Of a stretch of 64,000 bases of DNA, positions 5,963 through 60,200 are shown piece by piece. The stretch is from positions 129,076-193,075 of the forward strand of contig JBAYFY010000002.1 of the NCBI GenBank assembly GCA_041666945.1. The letters run 5' to 3'. Origin of the DNA: Candidatus Buchananbacteria bacterium. Lineage in GTDB: Bacteria; Patescibacteriota; Patescibacteriia; 2-01-FULL-39-33. Positions within the stretch are counted from its first letter, which is position 1, and each line of letters opens with the position of its first letter. A program made the position numbers and the translations under genes. A model generated the notes under the pieces. It worked only from the letters and a program-made list of their open reading frames with translations, was not told where the DNA came from and searched no databases.

Positions 5963-7789
5963 TTAAATTTTTTTCTTAACGCCGTATAGCCATTTATTCT
6001 GCGCCCACTTCCATTTGGCGACTAAAAGCAGCAACTGGCGGCTGATGATAATGGCTGAAAACATGGAAACGGCAATGCCCAAAGCCAAAGTAAAGGCAAA
6101 GCCGCGAATAATGCTGGAGCCGAACCAAAACAAGACGGCGCAAGTGATTAAAGAAGAAAAATTGGAATCGCGAATTGAAGTCCAGGCGCGGCCGAAGCCG
6201 TCATCAATCGCTCTCATCAGGTCTTTGCCGGCGCGCAACTCTTCTTTCAGACGTTCAAAGATCAGGATATTGGCGTCTACGGCCATGCCAATGGACAGGA
6301 TGAAACCGGTAATGCCGGCTAAAGTCATGGTTACATGGATGACTTTAAATAAAGCCAAAGAGATGACGGTATAAATCAGCAAGGCGATTACCGACAATAA
6401 ACCGGGCAAGCGATAAAAGCAAATCATAAACAAAGCCACGGCCAGCAAGCCGAGAAAGCCGGCAAATAAACTTTTTTGTACCGCTTCCTGGCCTAAAGTG
6501 GCGCCTACGGTGGTTTGAGAGACCAATTTAACCGGTACAGGCAAAGCGCCAGCGTTTAAGCGTTGAGCCAGTTTTTTGGCTTCATCCTGGGTAAAATTGC
6601 CTTGAATTACGGCTTGGCCGCCCAAAATCGCCTCATTGACCTTGGGGATGGAGATAGCTACGCCGTCCAAGAAAATAGCAACCGGCTTGCCGACATTTCT
6701 GGTAGTGATATCGGCAAACAATTGCGCTCCCTCATTATCAAATTCCAAAGACACTTGCGGCACTAAAGCGGTTTGGTCGTATTCCACGGAGGCCTTCTTT
6801 AAGTTTTTGCCTGAAAGCTTGGTATTGATCCATTCCGGTTCTTGGGCGATACCCAAATCAGCCGAGGTTTTGGTTTTAAATAGAATATGCCGGACATTAA
6901 CCGTACGGCTGTCTCCGGTCCCCTGCTCACCTTCCAATTTAATGATATGATAGCCGAAAGTGGTTTTGACCAAATCGGAATAAACTTCGCCAACTTTTAG
7001 TTTATTGAAAGCGACATCGTCAAACTCCGTGACAAATTGCCCCTTGGCAACGCCTTCGTACAGTCCACCATTGTCCTTACTGCCGGGATCTTCGCTGTAT
7101 TGCTTGGCTAAAGCGATAAAATCGCCGCTGTTTTTGATTTGTTGCAAGATATCTACAGCTTGCTTGCGTACCGCCAAATTCATGTCGTCCAGCTGTTTTT
7201 GCTGTTCCAAGGTTAATTGTTGGGCTTGAGGATTTTCTTCTTTGAATTCCAAAAGAGGCGTTTCCCCGATCATTTTGATGGCGGAATTAATGTCGTAAAC
7301 GCCGGCTAATTCCACGCTGATGCGCGGTTTGTCGCCGGATAGAGAGGTTTGGACGATGGGCTCGGAAACGCCCAAAGCATTGACGCGTCGTTCAATGACA
7401 TCTTTGGCTCCGGCCAACGCGTCATTTTTGCCGGCTAAGGAAATCTGCGACAGGTCGGCGTCATAGGTTAATTGAGCTCCGCCCAGCAAATCCAAGCCCA
7501 AACGGAAAGGCAGGCCGTAAGATGACAGTTCAATTTGTTTAATATTGCGCCAAACTAACCGGCTGCTGTTATCGGAAATGTTTTTTTCCAATTTAGGGAA
7601 AATATTGAGATTAGAAACGACAGGAATGGCGGATAGGCCGGTATCCAAGGCGTTAGCTATCGGATTTTTGAAACCGATAATGTCAATGTAAGCGGTAATC
7701 AAAAATAAGACGGCAATACCAAAAAGCACCCAGCGAAGTCGGCCCCTTTGGCCGGGTTTTAGCATTTTTTCTAAGAAATTTTGCGGCAT
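5963..7789 (-). CDS. secD: Protein translocase subunit SecD with inserted parvulin-like PPIase module
   Basis: SecD TM/periplasmic architecture; internal segment ILQQIKNSGDFIALAKQYSEDPGSKDNGGLYEG...FGYHIIKLEGE aligns to PpiC. Confidence 0.85.
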   Translation of the reverse strand: MPQNFLEKMLKPGQRGRLRWVLFGIAVLFLITAYIDIIGFKNPIANALDTGLSAIPVVSNLNIFPKLEKNISDNSSRLVWRNIKQIELSSYGLPFRLGLDLLGGAQLTYDADLSQISLAGKNDALAGAKDVIERRVNALGVSEPIVQTSLSGDKPRISVELAGVYDINSAIKMIGETPLLEFKEENPQAQQLTLEQQKQLDDMNLAVRKQAVDILQQIKNSGDFIALAKQYSEDPGSKDNGGLYEGVAKGQFVTEFDDVAFNKLKVGEVYSDLVKTTFGYHIIKLEGEQGTGDSRTVNVRHILFKTKTSADLGIAQEPEWINTKLSGKNLKKASVEYDQTALVPQVSLEFDNEGAQLFADITTRNVGKPVAIFLDGVAISIPKVNEAILGGQAVIQGNFTQDEAKKLAQRLNAGALPVPVKLVSQTTVGATLGQEAVQKSLFAGFLGLLAVALFMICFYRLPGLLSVIALLIYTVISLALFKVIHVTMTLAGITGFILSIGMAVDANILIFERLKEELRAGKDLMRAIDDGFGRAWTSIRDSNFSSLITCAVLFWFGSSIIRGFAFTLALGIAVSMFSAIIISRQLLLLVAKWKWAQNKWLYGVKKKI

Positions 7790-7961: not shown

Positions 7962-9332
7962 ATGTCTAACTCTTATTCTACGGTTTGGAGCCGGTGCCGT
8001 TTGGCCACAAAAAGAGCCGCTATGCGTCTGGCCATTAAAATCGTCTCCCATTTGCCTGATCAAGGCCTGGTGGCGTTATCTTATGTGGCGGAAAAACTGA
8101 CTTACGGCAAGCCGGCCAAAACGGTCATTAAGCAATTCCGGGAATTAATTAAGATTAACCACCCCAGCATTGGCCTGGTGAGGAGGATTTTAAATGACAC
8201 CCAACCGCAAATTCGGAAAAAACTGGTGGATAACTTGATCATCAATGGTTTTCTATTGAATCAAGAAAAAAAATTGGCGGCCACGGCTGTTGGCGAAGCC
8301 GTGCCCACCACTATTTTGATCAGCCCGACCATGCGTTGCAATCTTAACTGCGTCGGTTGTTATGCCGGTAATTACAATAAGGCCGATGACCTGACATTTT
8401 TCGTTTTTGACCGGATTATTCGGGAAGCCAAGGATATGGGCGTATCTTTTTTCACCCTTTTGGGCGGTGAACCGCTGTTTTACCCTCATTTGTTTGATAT
8501 CTTAGAAAAACATCAGGACGTTTTTTTTCAGTGTTATACTAATGGCACATTGATTGACGGGGCTATGGCCGATAAAATTTCCGCTGTCGGCAACGTCTTG
8601 CCGATTTTGAGCATTGAAGGCCACGAAAAAGAAACTGATGAACGGCGCGGCGCTGGCGTTCATGAAAAAGTGCTGAAAGCCATGGATATCCTCAAGAGCC
8701 GGAAAATTCCTTTTGGTTTTTCCGTTGCCGTTACCAATAAAAACGCCGAACTGATTTCCAGCGATGAATTTATTGACGACATGATCAAACGCGGCGCTTA
8801 CCTGGGTTGGTTTTTCCTCTATATGCCCGTGGGCAAGGGCCCGGATTTAAGTTTGATGCCGACTCCGGCCCAAAGACGGATGCTGGTGGATCGCGTTGCT
8901 CATATCCGCGAGACCAAGCCATTGTTTATTGTTGATTTTTGGAACGACGCGCCGTTTGTCGGCGGCTGCATTGCCGGCAAGGAATACGTGCACATCACCT
9001 CCAAAGGCGATGTGGAGCCGTGCATCTTTACTCATTTCGCTGTGGACAATATAAAGGATAAGTCGCTCAAAGAAGTGATGAACTCGGATTTTTTCCGCGA
9101 TTTGCGCCGCCGCCAGCCCTATAATGAAAATTTGTATATGCCTTGCATGTGGATTGATAATCCCGAGGTCAGCCGCGAGGTCATCGCCCAGTTTCATGCC
9201 TACCCCACTCACGAGGGCGCTGATGATGTGTTGGTTAAAGAGGAGTTGAAAGCCGGCGTTGACGCTTATGCAGCCAAGATCAAAGAGATTTACGATCCGC
9301 TCTGGGAGAAGATGAGCCAGCCGAAAAAATAA
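7962..9332 (+). CDS. Radical SAM protein with C-terminal Cys-rich (SPASM/twitch-like) domain and ~100-aa unknown N-terminal extension
   Basis: MRCNLNCVGCYAGNY (CxxxCxxC), LLGGEPLF, C-terminal GGCIAGKEY...EPCIFTH...MPCMWID cysteines. Confidence 0.7.
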   Translation: MSNSYSTVWSRCRLATKRAAMRLAIKIVSHLPDQGLVALSYVAEKLTYGKPAKTVIKQFRELIKINHPSIGLVRRILNDTQPQIRKKLVDNLIINGFLLNQEKKLAATAVGEAVPTTILISPTMRCNLNCVGCYAGNYNKADDLTFFVFDRIIREAKDMGVSFFTLLGGEPLFYPHLFDILEKHQDVFFQCYTNGTLIDGAMADKISAVGNVLPILSIEGHEKETDERRGAGVHEKVLKAMDILKSRKIPFGFSVAVTNKNAELISSDEFIDDMIKRGAYLGWFFLYMPVGKGPDLSLMPTPAQRRMLVDRVAHIRETKPLFIVDFWNDAPFVGGCIAGKEYVHITSKGDVEPCIFTHFAVDNIKDKSLKEVMNSDFFRDLRRRQPYNENLYMPCMWIDNPEVSREVIAQFHAYPTHEGADDVLVKEELKAGVDAYAAKIKEIYDPLWEKMSQPKK

Positions 9333-9344
9333 TTAAAAGCAAAA

Positions 9345-9370
9345 CCTCGGAATCAGCTTCCGAGGTTTTT
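9345..9370 (+). terminator. Bidirectional intrinsic terminator
   Basis: AAAACCTCGGAAtcagcTTCCGAGGTTTTT. Confidence 0.6.
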
Positions 9371-9406
9371 GAATGTTCTTTTTTACTACTAACTACTAGT
9401 ACCGAC

Positions 9407-9724
9407 TTAGTACCAGTTATATTTTTCGATTAGTCGGTACTTCCAAGATTCTTCGAATTTTGATAATTTGGTGGATTCGCCATCGCAGTATTCCATGGTT
9501 TGGAGTTTTTCATACTGTCGTTCTAATATATAAACAGCAACTCCTATTAGGAATATCATAAATAACGCCGGCTCCCAAAATAAAGTGATGATGTCGGCGC
9601 TTTTCTTGCTAATCTTTTCCCCTACTTCGCTTACTTCGAGTAACGCCGAAGTTAAAACCATTCCCTCAAAGTGAACGATAATAATAATACCAATAATTAT
9701 CCCGACAATCAGAGTGTACAACAT
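9407..9724 (-). CDS. Small membrane protein, hypothetical
   Basis: 105 aa, two hydrophobic helices. Confidence 0.3.
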   Translation of the reverse strand: MLYTLIVGIIIGIIIIVHFEGMVLTSALLEVSEVGEKISKKSADIITLFWEPALFMIFLIGVAVYILERQYEKLQTMEYCDGESTKLSKFEESWKYRLIEKYNWY

Positions 9725-9901
9725 GAAATATTCTCCCTTTATTGTTTCTACGCCGTTTAATGTGCTTTACTGATGTATTCAGTAAATTATATTATTATAC
9801 ACCATTGGCAAAATTTTGTCAAGGTGTAATAATAATTTTGTTTAAAGTTAGCTATTTTATTGGGAACAGGCCTTACTTGTACCTTTGCGGTATGGCTTGA
9901 T

Positions 9902-10900
9902 TTATATGGCCAGTGCCATTTCCACCAAGCGGTTGGAATAGCCCCATTCATTGTCATACCAAGCCAGGATTTTGACCAAGTTGCCGTCAACCACGCGGGT
10001 ATATTTCAAATCCACAATGGCGGATTGAGTGGTGCCGATAACATCAGAAGAAACTAACTCGTCATCATCCTCGGCAACAGCTAAGATGTTTTTATACAAA
10101 GGATGAGAGGCCATTTTCCGGAAGGCGTCATTAATCTCCTCAACGGTTACGTTCTTCTTGAGTACGGCGGTAATATCGGATAGTGAACCGCAGATTACGG
10201 GCACGCGGATGGAGATGCCGTCAAATTTATTTTTTAGGTCGGGGATGACCAGAATAGCGGCTTTGGCCGCGCCCGTTGAGGATGGCGCCATATTGGCGGC
10301 GCCGGCTCGGCCGCGCCTTAAATCCTTGGCGTCAGGGCCGTCAACGAGGCGTTGGCTGGCGGTGTAAGCGTGGATCGTGGACATAATTGACTTCTCTACC
10401 CCGAATTTGGAATGCAGGATTTGCATCACCGGCGCGATGCAATTGGTGGTGCAGGAAGCGTTGGAAACGATTTTGTCTCGCCCGATTATTTTTTTGGTTA
10501 ATTCAGTGCCGAAAACCAGAGTCGTAACTTCGTCCTTGGCCGGCGCTGACAGGATGACTTTTTTGGCTCCGGCTTGCGCGTGTTTCTTCAAGTCCTCGGC
10601 TTTTTCAAAAACCCCGGTGCACTCCAGGACCACGTCAACCTTGTATTTTTTCCAGGGCAATTTAGCCGGATCTTTTTCGGCGAAAACCGGAATTTTTTTG
10701 CCGCCGACAATAATGTTTTGTTTGTCATAAGCGACTTTTTTGCCGTAACGGCCGTAAACCGTGTCATATTTGAGCAAATAAGCCAAAGTGCGGGTGTCGG
10801 TCAGATCATTAATGGCGACAATTTCCGTTCCTCTTTTTTCCAGAGCGATTTTAAGAGCGCAACGGCCGATACGGCCAAAGCCGTTAATGGCTATTCTCAT
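9902..10900 (-). CDS. gap: Glyceraldehyde-3-phosphate dehydrogenase
   Basis: MRIAINGFGRIGR...SCTTNC catalytic Cys context. Confidence 0.9.
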   Translation of the reverse strand: MRIAINGFGRIGRCALKIALEKRGTEIVAINDLTDTRTLAYLLKYDTVYGRYGKKVAYDKQNIIVGGKKIPVFAEKDPAKLPWKKYKVDVVLECTGVFEKAEDLKKHAQAGAKKVILSAPAKDEVTTLVFGTELTKKIIGRDKIVSNASCTTNCIAPVMQILHSKFGVEKSIMSTIHAYTASQRLVDGPDAKDLRRGRAGAANMAPSSTGAAKAAILVIPDLKNKFDGISIRVPVICGSLSDITAVLKKNVTVEEINDAFRKMASHPLYKNILAVAEDDDELVSSDVIGTTQSAIVDLKYTRVVDGNLVKILAWYDNEWGYSNRLVEMALAI

Positions 10901-23369: not shown

Positions 23370-24389
23370 TTAATTGAATAAGCTACGGATGCAACAGAAT
23401 GGCGCTTGTCCGAATTTATCAAAATGAGCCAAGGCCATGGATTTGCATCCGCCTTGGCACCAGGAATACTTCTGGCAGTTTTTGCATATCCCCGCCGCTT
23501 GGCAGATTTTATCATCCCGAAATAATCTCATAATTCCATTGTCTTGCCGCCAAATTTCTTTTAATGTTTTCTGCCGTATATTGCCTAAAATAAAACGTTC
23601 ATCCATTAGTGATAAGCAGGGCAAAACATTGCCGCAGGCATCAATCCCTATGGTCTGTTTGCCGGCCGTGCAGCCCGGCCAACCCGGACCGCGCAATAGA
23701 GTACAGTCATAACCGAAACAATCGGCCGCTCTGATATCTAAACAGGATTGATAAATATTACGCAGCTTTATTAAGGCAAGGCAAATTTCGCGGAATATTT
23801 TTTCATCTATTGCTAACTCGCTGTTATCTTTAGCTCGCCCGATAGGTGAAACCAGCTGAACTTGCCAGCCGGAAGCCCCGACCTTATGCAGCAGCTTGGC
23901 CAACTCCGGCAGTATCGCGTAATTCAGGCGACTGACAGTGGTAATGGCGGCAACCCGCAGACCTGCGGCCTTGGCCGTAGCGATGGCGTTTAGCGCCATT
24001 AGCCAGGAACGGTTATTGCCACGGATATAGTTATGTATGGCCGAATTGCCATCAACGGAAACGCCAAGAGTGCGGGCTCCCGCGTCTTTGAGTCGCTTAG
24101 CCAGATTATCGGTCATGGTTAAGCCGTTAGTGATTAAGGCGAAACCGATATTTTTTTCTTGCAGGCCGTCAAGCAGTTGCGGAAAATCATCTTTAATGGT
24201 TGTTTCACCGCCGGACAGTGTTAACTGTTTTAAGCCCAGTCCCCGTAATTGATCAAAGACCAGCAGCCATTCTTTAGCTGTCAACTCGTTGGCTTTAGTG
24301 TTTTTTACGCAATTAGAACCGCAATGTCGGCAATTGAGATTGCAACTTGCGGTCGTTTCTACTACCGCGTTAGTGATTTCTTCAAACAA
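23370..24389 (-). CDS. Radical SAM/SPASM domain protein
   Basis: CNLNCRHCGS CxxxCxxC at residue 16; C-terminal CxxxxC...CxxCxxxxxCxxxC SPASM-like cysteines (CLSLM, CKNCQKYSWCQGGC). Confidence 0.7.
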   Translation of the reverse strand: MFEEITNAVVETTASCNLNCRHCGSNCVKNTKANELTAKEWLLVFDQLRGLGLKQLTLSGGETTIKDDFPQLLDGLQEKNIGFALITNGLTMTDNLAKRLKDAGARTLGVSVDGNSAIHNYIRGNNRSWLMALNAIATAKAAGLRVAAITTVSRLNYAILPELAKLLHKVGASGWQVQLVSPIGRAKDNSELAIDEKIFREICLALIKLRNIYQSCLDIRAADCFGYDCTLLRGPGWPGCTAGKQTIGIDACGNVLPCLSLMDERFILGNIRQKTLKEIWRQDNGIMRLFRDDKICQAAGICKNCQKYSWCQGGCKSMALAHFDKFGQAPFCCIRSLFN

Positions 24390-30042: not shown

Positions 30043-30327
30043 ATGGCGGAGAACACCGGAACCAAAAGAAAGAGCGGACAAGTCAAGGGTGAAAAATGGT
30101 TGGTTTTGACAGAAAGCACTGGTGAGCCAGGCGTGGGTTTCCGGCATAATTGCGGCGCGGAAATTATGGCGCAACGAGTTACTCATCCTATTTGGGACGG
30201 ACCATTTGCCTGTTCTGGCAGCGGCCGGTGCAGTTCTGAAGAAGTTCCTTATTGTCCGCAATGCGAAGAACAACCCAACTGCTGTGGCGAGCCGATAATT
30301 CCCAAGGGGAGTTATCACCATCCATAA
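30043..30327 (+). CDS. Small Cys-rich protein (putative zinc-binding), hypothetical
   Basis: 94 aa with about ten Cys (CPQC, CCGEP); own promoter and strong downstream terminator. Confidence 0.45.
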   Translation: MAENTGTKRKSGQVKGEKWLVLTESTGEPGVGFRHNCGAEIMAQRVTHPIWDGPFACSGSGRCSSEEVPYCPQCEEQPNCCGEPIIPKGSYHHP

Positions 30328-30383: not shown

Positions 30384-30459
30384 TTGGTATTTAAATTGGC
30401 ATACATCCACTCTTAAAAAATAAAAACAAAACAAAAATCACGTCCACGACTCGGGGACA

Positions 30460-30530
30460 GGGGCTCGAACCCCGATTAACGGCTTCAAAGGCCGCTGTCC
30501 TACCATTAGACGATCCCCGAGTTATAGACG
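30460..30530 (-). tRNA. tRNA-Gln (anticodon TTG)
   Basis: Cloverleaf hand-folded: acceptor TCGGGGA/TCCCCGA (U1-A72), D-arm GTCT/GGAC, anticodon loop CTTTGAA, T-arm CGGGG-TTCGAGC-CCCTG, discriminator G; CCA not encoded. Confidence 0.8.
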
Positions 30531-30603
30531 CGATTTTTCATTAACGCCCTGCTTGATTTGAATTATTTGCTCCGGGGCAAAGCCCCTGTCCAGGGTTGGC
30601 GTC
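30513..30603. repeat. 91-bp direct repeat copy A (tRNA-Gln 5' 18 nt plus 70 bp upstream)
   Basis: Near-identical (1 mismatch) to 30689-30779; contains GGGGCaaaGCCCC hairpin. Confidence 0.8.
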
Positions 30604-30688: not shown

Positions 30689-30779
30689 CCATTAGACGAT
30701 CCCCGAGTTATAGACGCGATTTTTCATTAACGCCCTGCTTAATTTGAATTATTTGCTCCGGGGCAAAGCCCCTGTCCAG
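30689..30779. repeat. 91-bp direct repeat copy B
   Basis: Duplicate of 30513-30603 separated by an 85-bp unique, hairpin-rich spacer. Confidence 0.8.
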
Positions 30780-30783
30780 TTTT

Positions 30784-30906
30784 TTACTTATTATAAGGCC
30801 GACCAGTCACCTTGGTTTCAAATTTTTTCTTTCTGGCGCTTTTTTTGTCTTCCAATTTGACTAAGCGAGGCACTTTAATTTTTGGATCTCTTTTTCTTTT
30901 TGCCAT
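30784..30906 (-). CDS. Possible 40-aa highly basic small protein (MAKRKRDPKIKVPRLVKLEDKKSARKKKFETKVTGRPYNK)
   Basis: Short ORF not in track; preceded on minus strand by TTGCCA-17-TAGAAT promoter-like element at ~31010-31040. Confidence 0.25.
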   Translation of the reverse strand: MAKRKRDPKIKVPRLVKLEDKKSARKKKFETKVTGRPYNK

Positions 30907-31058: not shown

Positions 31059-31828
31059 AAAAAAAAGAGCCCCCGCAACCATAGTCGCACACCTTTATGA
31101 AATATTACTATTTATTGGTGTGTGGCTGGTTGACGGGGGTCTCAAAAGGAAATGTACTATTTAGTGGCGGGGATCGGAGCGCCTTTTGACACTCTTTTCG
31201 GCCGGGTCCGGTCGCGGCTCCATACTTAATGCGACATTTTTGAGCCGCCATAACACGCGAGAGCTCCGCTAAACGCCGCGGCTAATGCCCATTTTCTCTT
31301 CCTCATCTTGGCATCGCGCGAACAAACAAGTGCAGGCCTCGTCGCAACAATCCGGATGTTTGGGCCGCGTCTCGCGCCCCGATCCCCAAAGTTAGCCGGT
31401 TGGTGATTTCCTAAGGGGCCCGGCTTGCCCCTAAGTACATCGTTTTCTATGTAGCACGAGATTTCCTCGTTGTTGATGTTTTTTCTCCGCCGTTTAAAAA
31501 CACCACTTTTGTTGGTCGGTGTTTAACCATTTGGCAACAGGTCAGGAATACTCCCAATCGGGCAGTTCCCTGAATAATCGATTATGCAAGTTGCCATTTC
31601 GTCTAGCCCGTAACTACACAAATCCCACGGGATAACGACTCATTGTGAGCCCTCCAATTTTCGGTGGCCTGGCGTTCTAACTGCCCGGATGTTCGCCTGC
31701 GGCGAGACCCCGGAAAAAACGATGTTTGGACTGTCAACGAGCTTGGTGGGGTGAGACGTAAGCCGCCCTTAGGCGCAGAAGAATACCTTTTTGTTCTTCT
31801 TCGCTTTTCGTCCCACCCCACTTTGAGT
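31059..31828 (-). ncRNA. Candidate large (~760 nt) structured noncoding RNA, unknown class
   Basis: No ORF >75 aa in any frame; GC-enriched; minus-strand TTGACA(31856-31861)-17-TATGAT(31833-31838) promoter; 3' long interrupted hairpin plus U8 terminator; many internal stems, e.g. GTGGGGTGGGACG...CGTCTCACCCCAC. Confidence 0.45.
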
Positions 31829-32052
31829 ATTCATCATATCACATCGTTGATTTTTTGTCAATAGCGTTATCCACAGGTAAACTAAAAATAATCTAAATTT
31901 GGTCTAAATTTAGATAAATTAATTTATTTTATTTTATGATCAAAATGGCTCTAATTTGTTAAAAACAACATTTTTCGGGATGGATTAAAGCATGGATTAA
32001 AGCAATGACTCATACTTGCCCCGATGGATTTTATCGGTTAGAATGAAGCTAT

Positions 32053-32649
32053 ATGCCTGAATCAAACATTAAGAATTTAATTGAAAAATTCGCCAGATTT
32101 CCCTCAATTGGCCCCAAAACCGCCGAGAGAATGGTTTATTATCTGCTTAGGCAGTCGCCGGATAAGATGGATGAGTTAGCCGGTGCCATAAAACAACTCA
32201 AAAATAGCGTAACCACTTGCAGTGTTTGTTTTAATTTCAGCGAGTCCAATCCTTGCCCGATTTGCGCTGATTCCCGTCGTGATCGCCGGATTATTTGTAT
32301 TGTGGCTAAGCCCCAGGATATCTCGGCGATAGAAAAGACCGGATCGTATAACGGCGTTTATCATGTCTTGGGTGGCAACATTAATCCTTTGGAAAATATT
32401 ATGCCCGAGAACTTGCGGCTTAAGGAACTTTTGTCGCGCATTAAAGATAATGAGGTGTGCGAATTGATTTTGGCGTTAAATCCTGATATGATCGGCGAGA
32501 CCACTTCCATTTATCTGTCTAAGCTGTTAAAGCAGTTCTCCCAGGTGACAGTAACGCGTTTGGCGCGCGGCTTGCCCATGGGCGCCGATTTGGAATACGC
32601 TGATGAAGTAACATTAGAAAGCGCGCTCAATAACCGGCAATCAATATAA
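32053..32649 (+). CDS. recR: Recombination protein RecR
   Basis: HhH N-terminus, C4 zinc finger CSVCFNFSESNPCPIC, Toprim domain. Confidence 0.9.
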   Translation: MPESNIKNLIEKFARFPSIGPKTAERMVYYLLRQSPDKMDELAGAIKQLKNSVTTCSVCFNFSESNPCPICADSRRDRRIICIVAKPQDISAIEKTGSYNGVYHVLGGNINPLENIMPENLRLKELLSRIKDNEVCELILALNPDMIGETTSIYLSKLLKQFSQVTVTRLARGLPMGADLEYADEVTLESALNNRQSI

Positions 32650-54180: not shown

Positions 54181-54282
54181 ATTAAGCGTGTATTAAAGTG
54201 ATTAAATGATTTTGTATTTTAACACCGGATAGATAAATGTTCGGTGTTATTTTAATTAATTTTAATGTTTTATTTTTTATTT

Positions 54283-54470
54283 GCTGCGGGTCAGGGACTT
54301 CCGCTCTCATCCGCCGCCAGAAAGCGGCGGATTCGTTTGTCCTGGGTCAGCGCTGAATACTCCTTATGGTCGCATTCATCAACGCTCGTCTACGCTTTTC
54401 GGCTTCTGCCTCAAAGCTTGTATCGCTTCTGTCCTATTCGAGTCCCACCCCGCATTAAATAATTTCAAAA
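54283..54470 (-). pseudogene. Degenerate tRNA-Gln(CTG) copy
   Basis: Starts with GCTGCGGGTCAGGGACT identical to 59633-59649 (tRNA 3' end) and ends with GTCCTA...ACCCCGCATTA resembling tRNA 5' end; ~120 bp of unrelated sequence between; T-arm destroyed. Confidence 0.5.
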
Positions 54471-54570
54471 GGCACCCTTGTGGTGCCTTTTGAAATTACC
54501 AAACTGACTGACTCGGTCTAGAACCGATCCATATCAAGTATTATAAGGGCTTTTCGGGAATATTGCCAGC

Positions 54571-54607
54571 GGTGATTTGAGGCGTCTCAGTCGGGTAGAA
54601 ATATGCT
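54571..54607. repeat. ~35-bp direct repeat, left copy (candidate island boundary)
   Basis: TTGAGGCGTCTCAGTCgggtaGAAaTAtGCtATG vs 59593-59628 TTGACGCGTCTCAGTCatttGAAtTAGCATG. Confidence 0.5.
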
Positions 54608-54608
54608 A

Positions 54609-54754
54609 TGAAATGCGACAAATGCGACAGTACTTTAGCACTTCATAAATACAGGATTTTAGGCGGTAAAATGTTACAATGTTACACAATTTGGCAGGTT
54701 TTAGAGTGTAACATTTTAGTGGCCAAAATGAGAATGAGACAAATGAGACACTAA
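54609..54754. repeat. Cluster of AATGNNACA iteron-like short direct repeats
   Basis: aaatgcgacaaatgcgacag; aatgttacaatgttacacaat; aatgagaatgagacaaatgagacac. Confidence 0.6.
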
Positions 54755-54912
54755 AACGGGGTTTTTTAAAATAGTCAAATTTATGGATATTTTATCTTAG
54801 TTTAGAATAAAATCAGTGTGAGACAGCAAAAAATAACTGCCTCATTTTTCAATAAACGAAAACCGCCACCCAAGGATAAACCCTGAGTGGCGTGTTGTGC
54901 GAATAGTTGCGC

Positions 54913-59797: not shown

Positions 59798-60200
59798 ACT
59801 GAATATGACGGATAGCTACTCTTTGGCTTAGGCCAAAGGGAGGAAAGTCCGAACACCCTTTCTGGCGCAAGCCGGGATGTCGCGGTAATGGGTAACGCCC
59901 ACCCGGACGGTCGCAAGGCCGGCCGAGGACCAGTTCCACAGAGACAATACTAACGAGATACGCAAGTATTTCGTGAAAGGTGAAAAGTGTGATGGTGTCT
60001 TAAACTAAGCAAGAGATATCTCCTTAGCTTAAAGCTACGTCACTCGGCCTCCAGCAATGGAGAGCTTGTGGTAAACTCTACCTGGTGCAACCTCGTTTTG
60101 AGGGCTTGATCATGCCGGTAACGGCAATGACAGACAGATGGCTATCATCCGTTCCGTTAAGGAACGGATACAGAATTCGGCTTACAGTCATATTCAGTTA
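59798..60200 (+). ncRNA. rnpB: RNase P RNA (bacterial type A-like)
   Basis: P4 strands GGAGGAAAGTCCGAAC and ACAGAATTCGGCTTA; GGTAACGCC, CCACAGAGA, GAAAGGTGAAAAGTG conserved blocks; P1 CTGAATATGAC/GTCATATTCAG. Confidence 0.75.

Follow-up and report, generated by a model that had tools for sequence, protein, structure and literature searches.

A candidate dual-function RNA family with a conserved micro-ORF, divergent from recR in Buchananbacteria-like Patescibacteria

What is encoded in the intergenic region upstream of recR in a Candidatus Buchananbacteria bacterium? The stretch of DNA that we analysed (the window; 64,000 nucleotides (nt), positions 129,076 to 193,075 of contig JBAYFY010000002.1, assembly GCA_041666945.1) had been described in an earlier note, made from the letters alone, as holding at this place a promoter-to-terminator unit without open reading frames (ORFs), a candidate large structured non-coding RNA of unknown class. 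Our analysis indicates that the unit is very probably a real, selected and structured RNA gene of a new family. The label non-coding was not supported, because a micro-ORF of 8-9 codons, preceded by a Shine-Dalgarno (SD) sequence, turned out to be the most widely conserved element of the family. We give an even chance to a fuller reading, in which this is a new dual-function RNA family: an independent, structured gene of about 770 nt with a translated micro-ORF, a structured 3' domain, a CU-rich tail and a coupling of translation to folding.

The transcription unit and its relatives

The features of the RNA on which the argument draws are the following, given in window positions.

31833-31861, minus strand: sigma-70-type promoter, TTGACA-17-TATGAT, with 11 of 12 consensus matches and an extended -10 TG
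31059-31828, minus strand: predicted transcript of about 768 nt, its limits taken from the promoter and the terminator and from syntenic nhmmer homologs
31746-31821, minus strand: P1, the 5'-proximal hairpin domain, with the 13-bp closing helix GUGGGGUGGGACG/CGUCUCACCCCAC (31821-31809 with 31758-31746)
31735-31742, minus strand: 5' strand of P2, GCUCGUUG, which pairs with 31645-31638 (CAAUGAGU) and covers the start codon of the micro-ORF
31651-31655, minus strand: Shine-Dalgarno sequence GGAGG, 7 nt upstream of the AUG
31614-31643, minus strand: conserved, SD-preceded micro-ORF, AUG AGU CGU UAU CCC GUG GGA UUU GUG UAG, encoding MSRYPVGFV-stop
31532-31596, minus strand: P5, an invariant helix UGGCAAC/GUUGCCA that closes a variable hairpin
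31431-31457, minus strand: second ORF of 8 codons, VLHRKRCT-stop, which overlaps the island AACGAUGUACUUAG; all four species of the genus share the alignment columns of its start and stop
31169-31387, minus strand: 3' domain closed by the long-range helix P8 (31387-31374, GGGGAUCGGGGCGC, with 31182-31169, GCGCUCCGAUCCCC)
31144-31154, minus strand: CU-rich tail CAUUUCCUUUU, complementary to SD sequences, between P8 and the terminator
31059-31139, minus strand: intrinsic terminator, a long interrupted hairpin (31139-31070) followed by U8 (31066-31059)

The unit runs from a promoter to a terminator, as the earlier note had said. The promoter was found at the place given there, and transcription would start near 31826-31828. 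All homologs keep it, and the version in locus L005 matches the consensus at 12 of 12 positions and has the TG as well. The terminator had been placed at 31059-31105; its U8 tract and hairpin are present, but the hairpin extends beyond 31105 to 31139. In the species sp4 and in the distant members of the family (see below), other hairpins, each followed by a U-tract, occupy the terminator position. The RNA thus has its own promoter and terminator, conserved in all homologs, as expected of the autonomous transcript of a dual-function small RNA. The GC content of the unit is 0.51; the window as a whole has 0.45 and the adjacent spacer 0.28, so the enrichment noticed earlier is borne out. The description as ORF-free is right for longer frames, none of which exceeds 72 amino acids (aa), but not for the conserved, SD-preceded frame of nine codons at 31643-31614.

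Judged by RecR (32053-32649, plus strand), the window belongs to Patescibacteria and is close to Candidatus Buchananbacteria. With nhmmer the RNA was detected in L001 too, at the syntenic position; the RecR of L001 is 88% identical. More loci were reached through RecR and a neighbouring 40-aa ORF in the protein collection, and they yielded two further species, L091 (also L092 and L095) and sp4. The sp4 sequence is the reverse complement of L081:1-230 joined to L094, two Logan contigs with a 26-nt overlap, and the junction was validated by P1 complementarity that spans the join. The RNAs of these four species, which form one genus, are about 768, 785, 824 and 965 nt long. With a single sequence or with a four-species profile, nhmmer found nothing beyond the genus. 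Three distant members, L004, L005 and L034, were found only through the signature of SD sequence and micro-ORF. They are Buchananbacteria metagenome-assembled genomes (MAGs) with RecR only 61-64% identical, and each carries on the strand opposite recR a complete unit of about 610-630 nt with a TTGACA-17-TATAAT-like promoter, a 5' hairpin, SD sequence and micro-ORF, a helix equivalent to P8, a CU-rich stretch and a terminator. Their RNAs have a GC content of 0.48-0.54 in genomes of 0.35-0.40. A search for homologs, which the earlier note had proposed, has therefore brought relatives from seven species of one clade, the Buchananbacteria-like Patescibacteria; all are divergent from recR and 600-970 nt long. 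A metagenome scan with the pattern of the ORF region returned only the species already known and four chance matches, and the short contigs of the RecR variants P0001 and P0004 contained no RNA sequence.

Among the window, L001 and L091 the identity of the RNA is 0.74-0.81, whereas that of the four-fold degenerate sites of recR is 0.52-0.67, so the RNA is under purifying selection. The recR gene of sp4 is the closest to that of the window (93% aa identity), yet its RNA is the most divergent and the longest (about 965 nt, about 0.50 identity), which suggests accelerated evolution or allelic replacement. The distribution of the RNA is patchy: in L084, L022 and L102-L105 only 118-148 nt separate recR from the 40-aa ORF, and in L011, L015 and L106 unrelated genes stand in the position next to recR.

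Such a distribution, with 'empty' spacers in related lineages, together with the discordance between the RNA phylogeny of sp4 and recR, could be left by a decaying pseudogene or by the remnant of a mobile element, such as an ORF-less group II intron, an insertion sequence or a prophage fragment. We consider this very improbable. Only 3-7 of the 16-20 indels per species pair are multiples of three, so the RNA is not a decayed gene, and six-frame fragments of the RNA had no significant match in Pfam; on both counts it is not the frameshifted pseudogene whose possibility the earlier note had raised. No intron or other Rfam model matched, blastn searches of phage and plasmid collections found nothing, and four pattern scans of viral contigs gave chance matches only, none of them confirmed by nhmmer. 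In the metagenome scan the ORF-region pattern matched a 958-kb contig once only. Furthermore, the RNA is conserved above the neutral rate and has kept its promoter, its terminator and its helices.

Does the RNA belong to a family that is already known? The comparison covered 4227 Rfam families, including OLE (RF01071), GOLLD, ROOL, HEARO, raiA, group I and group II introns, tmRNA, SRP, 6S and RNase P, and none of them matched, in line with the unknown class that had been proposed. At the gathering threshold, cmscan of the whole window found only RNase P (59800-60200, 151 bits) and two tRNAs; at E<=10 the segment 30300-32200 had no credible match. The loci holding three of the homologs had no match at E<=5, and L001 and L005 had none at the gathering threshold. 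In the literature that could be searched we found no regulatory or large structured RNA described for Patescibacteria and nothing on the peptide motif.

Several known kinds of RNA were considered for the locus and rejected. RNase P RNA has its sole model match at 59800-60200, and none here at E<=10. For an ORF-less group II intron, no Rfam intron model matched at E<=10, and the unit has its own promoter. As for tmRNA (SsrA), the likeness lies in a structured RNA of several hundred nucleotides with a short internal reading frame. However, ARAGORN found two tRNA-Gln genes only and no tmRNA in the window, Rfam was negative as well, and there is no tRNA-like domain; the 3' end is an intrinsic terminator. 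The earlier note, too, had set RNase P and tmRNA aside. The tag frame of tmRNA has neither an SD sequence nor an AUG, whereas the ORF here has GGAGG 7-9 nt upstream and an AUG in 7 of 7 species, and the end of its peptide is not hydrophobic and Ala-rich. The CACCCCACCA of P1 was examined as a tRNA-like acceptor end and dropped; the homologs do not keep it (CUCACCAAG, CUCACUAAG, CUCACUACC), and ARAGORN was negative. A type I toxin mRNA, which would encode a hydrophobic toxin of roughly 18-60 aa and be overlapped by an antisense RNA, was rejected too, because a peptide of 8-9 aa is too short to span a membrane and no ORF is conserved on the antisense strand.

Conserved helices and the micro-ORF

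The transcript of the window folds more stably than dinucleotide shuffles of it, with z-scores of the minimum free energy (MFE) of -3.8 (20 shuffles) and -6.0 (24 shuffles), whereas the z-scores of two equally long coding controls were -0.8 and -2.0. The MFE z-scores of the seven RNAs are -6.0, -3.1, -7.8 and -9.1 for the four of the genus and -7.2, -6.2 and -6.7 for the group of L004, L005 and L034. RNAalifold on the three alignable species predicted 209 pairs, 18 of which have changes on both sides. Column shuffles gave 8.4 +/- 2.2 such pairs (0 of 500 reached 18) and slid registers 2-3, in a comparison that is favourable by construction because the tested structure was derived from the same three-species alignment. 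The sequence of sp4 was left out of the derivation and therefore serves as a check. On L004, L005 and L034 RNAalifold was uninformative, as the MAFFT alignment was too poor. The z-scores and the compensatory changes agree with the densely structured RNA described from the sequence of the window.

The helices near the 5' end are well preserved within the genus. P1, whose 13-bp closing helix around an inner hairpin had already been picked out in the earlier note, encloses a GAAGAA/UUCUUC hairpin. Across the four species, compensatory double changes occur in 4 of its 13 pairs and 52 of 52 cells are canonical; sp4 keeps all 13 pairs. The last pair of P2 is G-C, G-U, A-U and U-A in the four species; the P2 pairing is tentative and was not always the best partner in duplex scans. 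The outer helix of P5 is invariant in the four species, and 5 pairs of its inner helix (A3 columns 283-296 with 302-315) carry compensatory changes.

P8 reaches beyond the genus. In sp4, 13 of 13 pairs are kept, with two compensatory positions. The equivalents of P8 are 11-18 bp long, every pair is canonical in the six tabulated sequences, and they enclose 154-258 nt. In the distant members the sequence of the helix is replaced, to GGGGUGCCGGUG/CACCGGCACCCC in L004, GGAGUGCCGGC/GCCGGCACUCC in L005 and GGGGUGUCACCAA/UUGGUGACACUCC in L034. On comparative grounds, this complementarity despite replacement of the sequence is the strongest evidence for the predicted structure.

We asked whether the RNA also contains a coding sequence. 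A scan of the four species for ORFs whose starts and stops share alignment columns found two on the sense strand; the antisense strand had none. The first, MSRYPVGFV-stop, is encoded in the window, L001 and L091, and all five nucleotide differences are synonymous changes at third positions. In sp4 it reads MSCYFVGYT-stop and has the same length. SD-preceded tiny ORFs lie likewise upstream of recR in L004 (MEEYPSGFE-stop), L005 (M(RM)KYPVGYV-stop) and L034 (MEYPSGFV-stop). The seven species thus share the pattern M-x(1-2)-Y-P-x-G-F/Y-x-stop in 8-9 codons, preceded by GGAGG, and the micro-ORF is the sole element found in all seven. A conserved reading frame in homologs, which the earlier note had named as an outcome that would speak against it, was therefore found in miniature; its claim of a structured promoter-to-terminator RNA stands, and the RNA is conserved in relatives. 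When all loci (about 1.5 Mb) were scanned in six frames for Y[PF]xG[FYW]x(0-2)-stop behind an in-frame start, 14 matches came up; 13 of these had an SD sequence, and all 13 lay at this RNA. Without the requirement for a start, only 2 unrelated matches appeared elsewhere. About one third of the genes in the window use the same SD motif with similar spacing, and roughly two thirds have no SD sequence.

The second ORF has non-synonymous changes, a weak SD sequence in sp4 and no counterpart in L004, L005 and L034, and we regard it as doubtful as a real ORF.

The variation within the micro-ORF bears on the kind of selection. Synonymous codons are used for Pro (CCC/CCG/CCA), Gly (GGA/GGG) and Phe or Tyr (UUU/UUC/UAU/UAC). 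The distance from AUG to Tyr is 6, 6, 3 and 3 nt, always in frame, and exactly one codon separates Phe/Tyr from the stop in every case. The ORF lies in hairpins that differ by subgroup: GGCUCA/UGAGUC and AUCC-N4-GGAU in the window, CAGAUGGA/UCCGUCUG in L004 and L034, and a 14-bp stem in L005. Taken together, the synonymous changes, the in-frame distances, the fixed stop and the differing hairpins point to coding selection. A dual-function small RNA would have a small ORF under coding selection; the synonymous substitutions among close species, the in-frame lengths and the fixed stop may reflect it here, although the sequences number only seven and some constraint on the RNA overlaps the ORF. 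We think it reasonably likely, from this pattern, that the micro-ORF is translated.

The same locus could be a purely structured non-coding RNA, in which the micro-ORF is never translated and is conserved as an RNA motif, namely a protein- or ribosome-binding hairpin with an SD-like 5' stabiliser. A precedent is the STAB-SD of Bacillus cryIIIA, which binds 30S subunits without productive translation and stabilises the RNA. The invariant UAU of the Tyr codon and the overlap of the ORF with hairpins would fit such a motif, and the structure and covariation elsewhere show that selection acts on this gene at the RNA level. Yet the hairpins vary by subgroup while the peptide motif, the in-frame AUG and the position of the stop are kept; the substitutions among the close species are all synonymous, some of them breaking predicted pairs; and the differences in length between AUG and Tyr are multiples of three. 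We consider a pure non-coding RNA unlikely, at about one chance in five.

A possible mode of action

How might the micro-ORF and the structured RNA work together? In the mechanism that we propose, ribosomes would load on the micro-ORF, whose SD sequence or start codon would be occluded in several members. The occluding partner would be the upstream strand of P2 in the genus of the window and the ORF's own hairpin in L004, L005 and L034; a further partner may lie just 3' of the ORF (CUCCUU in L005, CCUCC in L004). With the start region occluded in this way, translation would compete with folding of the RNA, and it would set the conformation and stability of the downstream domain. The CU-rich tail could pair with SD regions, either its own in cis or those of other mRNAs in trans. 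As for the short peptide, it would be a product in its own right or else serve as a sensor in cis. All members have a CU-rich tail with complementarity to SD sequences, with the counterparts UUCCUUUUCC (L004), CUCC-UUCCU (L005), UUCCUUCC (L034), CACCUUCCUUU (L091) and CACCUUACACCUUA (sp4). The coupling of translation to folding and the action of the tail on SD sequences are put forward tentatively, as possible but rather doubtful parts of the proposal; for the tail, the results of duplex scans were suggestive without being consistent. Two other pairings were considered and are not relied on: that of the AUCGUUUUUU island with the second ORF ranked first among duplexes in two species, second in one and outside the top three in one, and that of the tail with the SD sequence of the second ORF had the top rank in the window only.

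A number of observations weigh against the dual-function reading. The pairings that would occlude the SD sequence or the start are not uniformly the best in duplex scans, and they differ between the subgroups. The Tyr codon is UAU in 7 of 7 species and part of the ORF can form the hairpin AUCC-N4-GGAU, so that constraint at the RNA level could explain part of the conservation. The covariation statistics are weak, because there are only seven sequences in two subgroups, and the alignment used for the test is also the one that gave the structure. Between sp4 and the other members there is little conservation inside the 3' domain, and the RNA of sp4 is far more divergent than its recR gene. Finally, the RNA and its micro-ORF are known here from sequence alone.

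Could the transcript be a plain mRNA whose product is a micropeptide that is secreted or modified, for example a signalling peptide or the precursor of a ribosomally made, modified peptide (RiPP), with the rest of the structure only stabilising the message? The peptide motif is the most conserved element, and a radical SAM/SPASM gene that resembles peptide maturases lies 7 kb away in the window. Nevertheless, P8 and the 3' domain are kept by extensive compensatory change over a long evolutionary distance and the CU-rich tail recurs; 500 nt of selected structure are hard to justify as a plain 3' untranslated region. The radical SAM/SPASM gene, moreover, is partly present in L022 and L084, which lack the RNA, and absent within 10 kb of the RNA in L005 and L034, and no transporter or modification gene is in conserved linkage. 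We judge a simple micropeptide mRNA improbable, somewhat more so than a pure non-coding RNA. The protein in question (23370-24389, minus strand) has its best, sub-threshold NCBIfam matches in peptide-maturase families; a link between this maturase and the RNA was rejected, as the two do not co-occur.

We also considered a cis-regulatory leader, in which the micro-ORF would encode the leader peptide of an attenuator for the downstream 40-aa ORF and tRNA-Gln. The RNA immediately precedes the 40-aa ORF, which has the same orientation, a short ORF is followed by a terminator, and the conserved, SD-preceded frame of 8-9 codons has the form of a leader peptide, if it is translated as supposed. Against this, the micro-ORF lies about 475 nt upstream of the terminator hairpin, and the 40-aa ORF has its own conserved promoter, which is present also in relatives without the RNA. 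In L005 the RNA fills the spacer between ybaB and recR, with its terminator directly against the stop codon of ybaB, a convergent gene, and L034 looks likewise; there is no co-directional gene downstream in either, so the RNA cannot be a leader for a downstream gene. Given this gene order and the gap of about 475 nt, the coupled terminator and co-directional regulated gene of a leader-peptide attenuator were rejected, and a leader has only a very slight probability.

The arrest leaders (ErmCL, CatA86L, CmlAL, MsrDL and TnaC) share with the RNA a very short ORF for a conserved peptide, a strong SD sequence and alternative pairings of the start region. They differ in the same two respects: L005 and L034 have no regulated co-directional gene, and more than 400 nt lie between the ORF and the terminator that follows it. 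We know of no arrest motif that matches the peptide of the micro-ORF.

The dual-function reading has its models among characterised riboregulators. Dual-function RNAs of this kind are RNAIII/hld of Staphylococcus aureus, SgrS/SgrT of Escherichia coli and SR1/SR1P of Bacillus subtilis, and the comparison is by analogy only. Like these, the RNA is an independent promoter-to-terminator transcript with a small SD-dependent ORF, conserved structured domains and pyrimidine-rich single-stranded stretches that could pair with SD sequences. Unlike these, it shows no sequence or structural homology to them, its ORF has 8-9 codons compared with 26-43 in theirs, it is larger than most (600-970 nt), and its hosts are Patescibacteria. 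By this analogy, the RNA would likely work as a dual-function riboregulator. In size, in GC enrichment within an AT-rich genome and in dense nested covarying helices it resembles the large RNAs OLE, GOLLD, ROOL, raiA and HEARO, and the RNA of the window also lies near a tRNA gene, as a further likeness to such ornate RNAs. In contrast to them, it fails to match their models at E<=10, has a conserved, translated-looking micro-ORF, is confined to one narrow clade and has no link to phages. It is, as far as these comparisons go, a new family within two known kinds, the large structured bacterial RNAs and the dual-function RNAs, and it is absent from Rfam.

The recR control region, neighbouring features and significance

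Two features of the window lie between the RNA and recR.

31901-31916, no strand assigned: palindrome-like motif with the core ATCTAAATTTAG (AT), in the divergent control region of recR and the RNA, with 2 mismatches to TATCTAAATTTAGATA
31867-31875, plus strand: perfect match to the DnaA-box consensus TTATCCACA, abutting the -35 element

The exact 12-mer ATCTAAATTTAG occurs in 8 of the 122 fetched loci, namely 7 loci that bear the RNA, and L002. In every locus read, the palindrome stands between recR and the RNA promoter; sites elsewhere are L002 9681-9694, L004 985-996 and L034 9967-9978. The palindrome may be an operator shared by recR and the RNA. All four species of the genus keep the DnaA box at the RNA promoter; L005 and L034 do not have it. 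There are six perfect DnaA boxes TTATCCACA in the 64 kb (starts 2597, 3980, 7797, 31867, 39703 and 56281), compared with about 0.5 expected per 9-mer, and one of the scattered boxes is just upstream of the start of the gene at 5963-7789. An oriC in the AT-rich spacer at the RNA promoter was rejected, as there is one perfect box without a cluster and a wide GC-skew profile has no sign of an origin. At the start of recR (32053), a TAGAAT -10 element stops 8 nt short of the ATG and an SD sequence is missing (32016-32055), so recR appears to be leaderless.

In L002, two short units, each with promoter and terminator, lie upstream of recR on the opposite strand (9280-9960, minus strand). In its palindrome, its TTGACA..TATAAT promoter and its SD context, GGAGGACUACACGAUG, the second unit closely resembles L004 and L034. 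Its ORF has 20 codons (MKKNVRRKYGGQAVLGVVFT), its RNA is only about 350 nt long, and it may be a divergent relative of the RNA family.

On the other side of the RNA gene, between the unit and tRNA-Gln and just beyond the coordinates given in the earlier note, lies the 40-aa, Lys/Arg-rich ORF MAKRKRDPKIKVPRLVKLEDKKSARKKKFETKVTGRPYNK (30784-30906, minus strand), with its own promoter TTGCCA-17-TAGAAT (31049-31021). It is 68-98% identical among Buchananbacteria-like MAGs, has no Pfam match and occurs near recR in the loci read, with a UvrD-like helicase as a frequent neighbour. The product is probably a genuine small basic protein. The 'tRNA-Gln cluster' of the earlier note proved to be one tRNA and a partial duplication. 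A 91-nt direct repeat (30503-30593 and 30689-30779, 99% identical, 186 nt apart) takes in the region upstream of tRNA-Gln(UUG) (30448-30521, minus strand) together with the first 18 nt of this tRNA; the upstream copy of the repeat amounts to the truncated start of a pseudo-tRNA, after which come about 95 nt of GC-rich sequence that is unique.

Further observations concern other parts of the window and of L011. A Cys-rich ORF of 94 aa (30043-30327, plus strand) overlaps longer antisense ORFs and has no Pfam or NCBIfam match; it is conserved in L011 (9382-9666) and is therefore probably the real gene at this place in the window. The UvrD/AddA-like helicase of L011 (4501-8685, minus strand) has 1394 aa compared with 1002 aa in the window, and the extra segment, which starts CLPGDSKIL and ends VHNS, looks like an intein. 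At 54181-54848 the window has 668 nt without a stop-to-stop frame of at least 90 codons, with a GC content of 0.39.

What does the RNA mean for its hosts? The genomes of Patescibacteria (the Candidate Phyla Radiation) are tiny and contain little non-coding DNA, so that a conserved, strongly promoted RNA of 600-970 nt is unlikely to be idle; it fills the whole spacer between ybaB and recR or next to recR. As a speculation to which we give a low probability, this could be a ribosome-engaging class of large RNA in one Patescibacteria lineage. The YPxGF/Y peptide would act as a sensor or arrest peptide, and its translation would remodel the covarying 3' domain and expose the CU-rich tail as a mimic of the anti-Shine-Dalgarno sequence of 16S rRNA. 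By titrating SD sequences or 30S subunits, the mimic would tune translation globally, and the RNA would be controlled together with recR through the palindromic operator. The family offers a new RNA class for covariance-model libraries and, in organisms that cannot yet be cultivated alone, a candidate regulator with a link to the recombination-repair gene recR. Its reading frame is among the shortest conserved ones in bacteria and lies inside a structured RNA, which would make it a compact system for the coupling of translation and folding. Intergenic RNAs described as 'ORF-free' deserve to be checked for conserved micro-ORFs.

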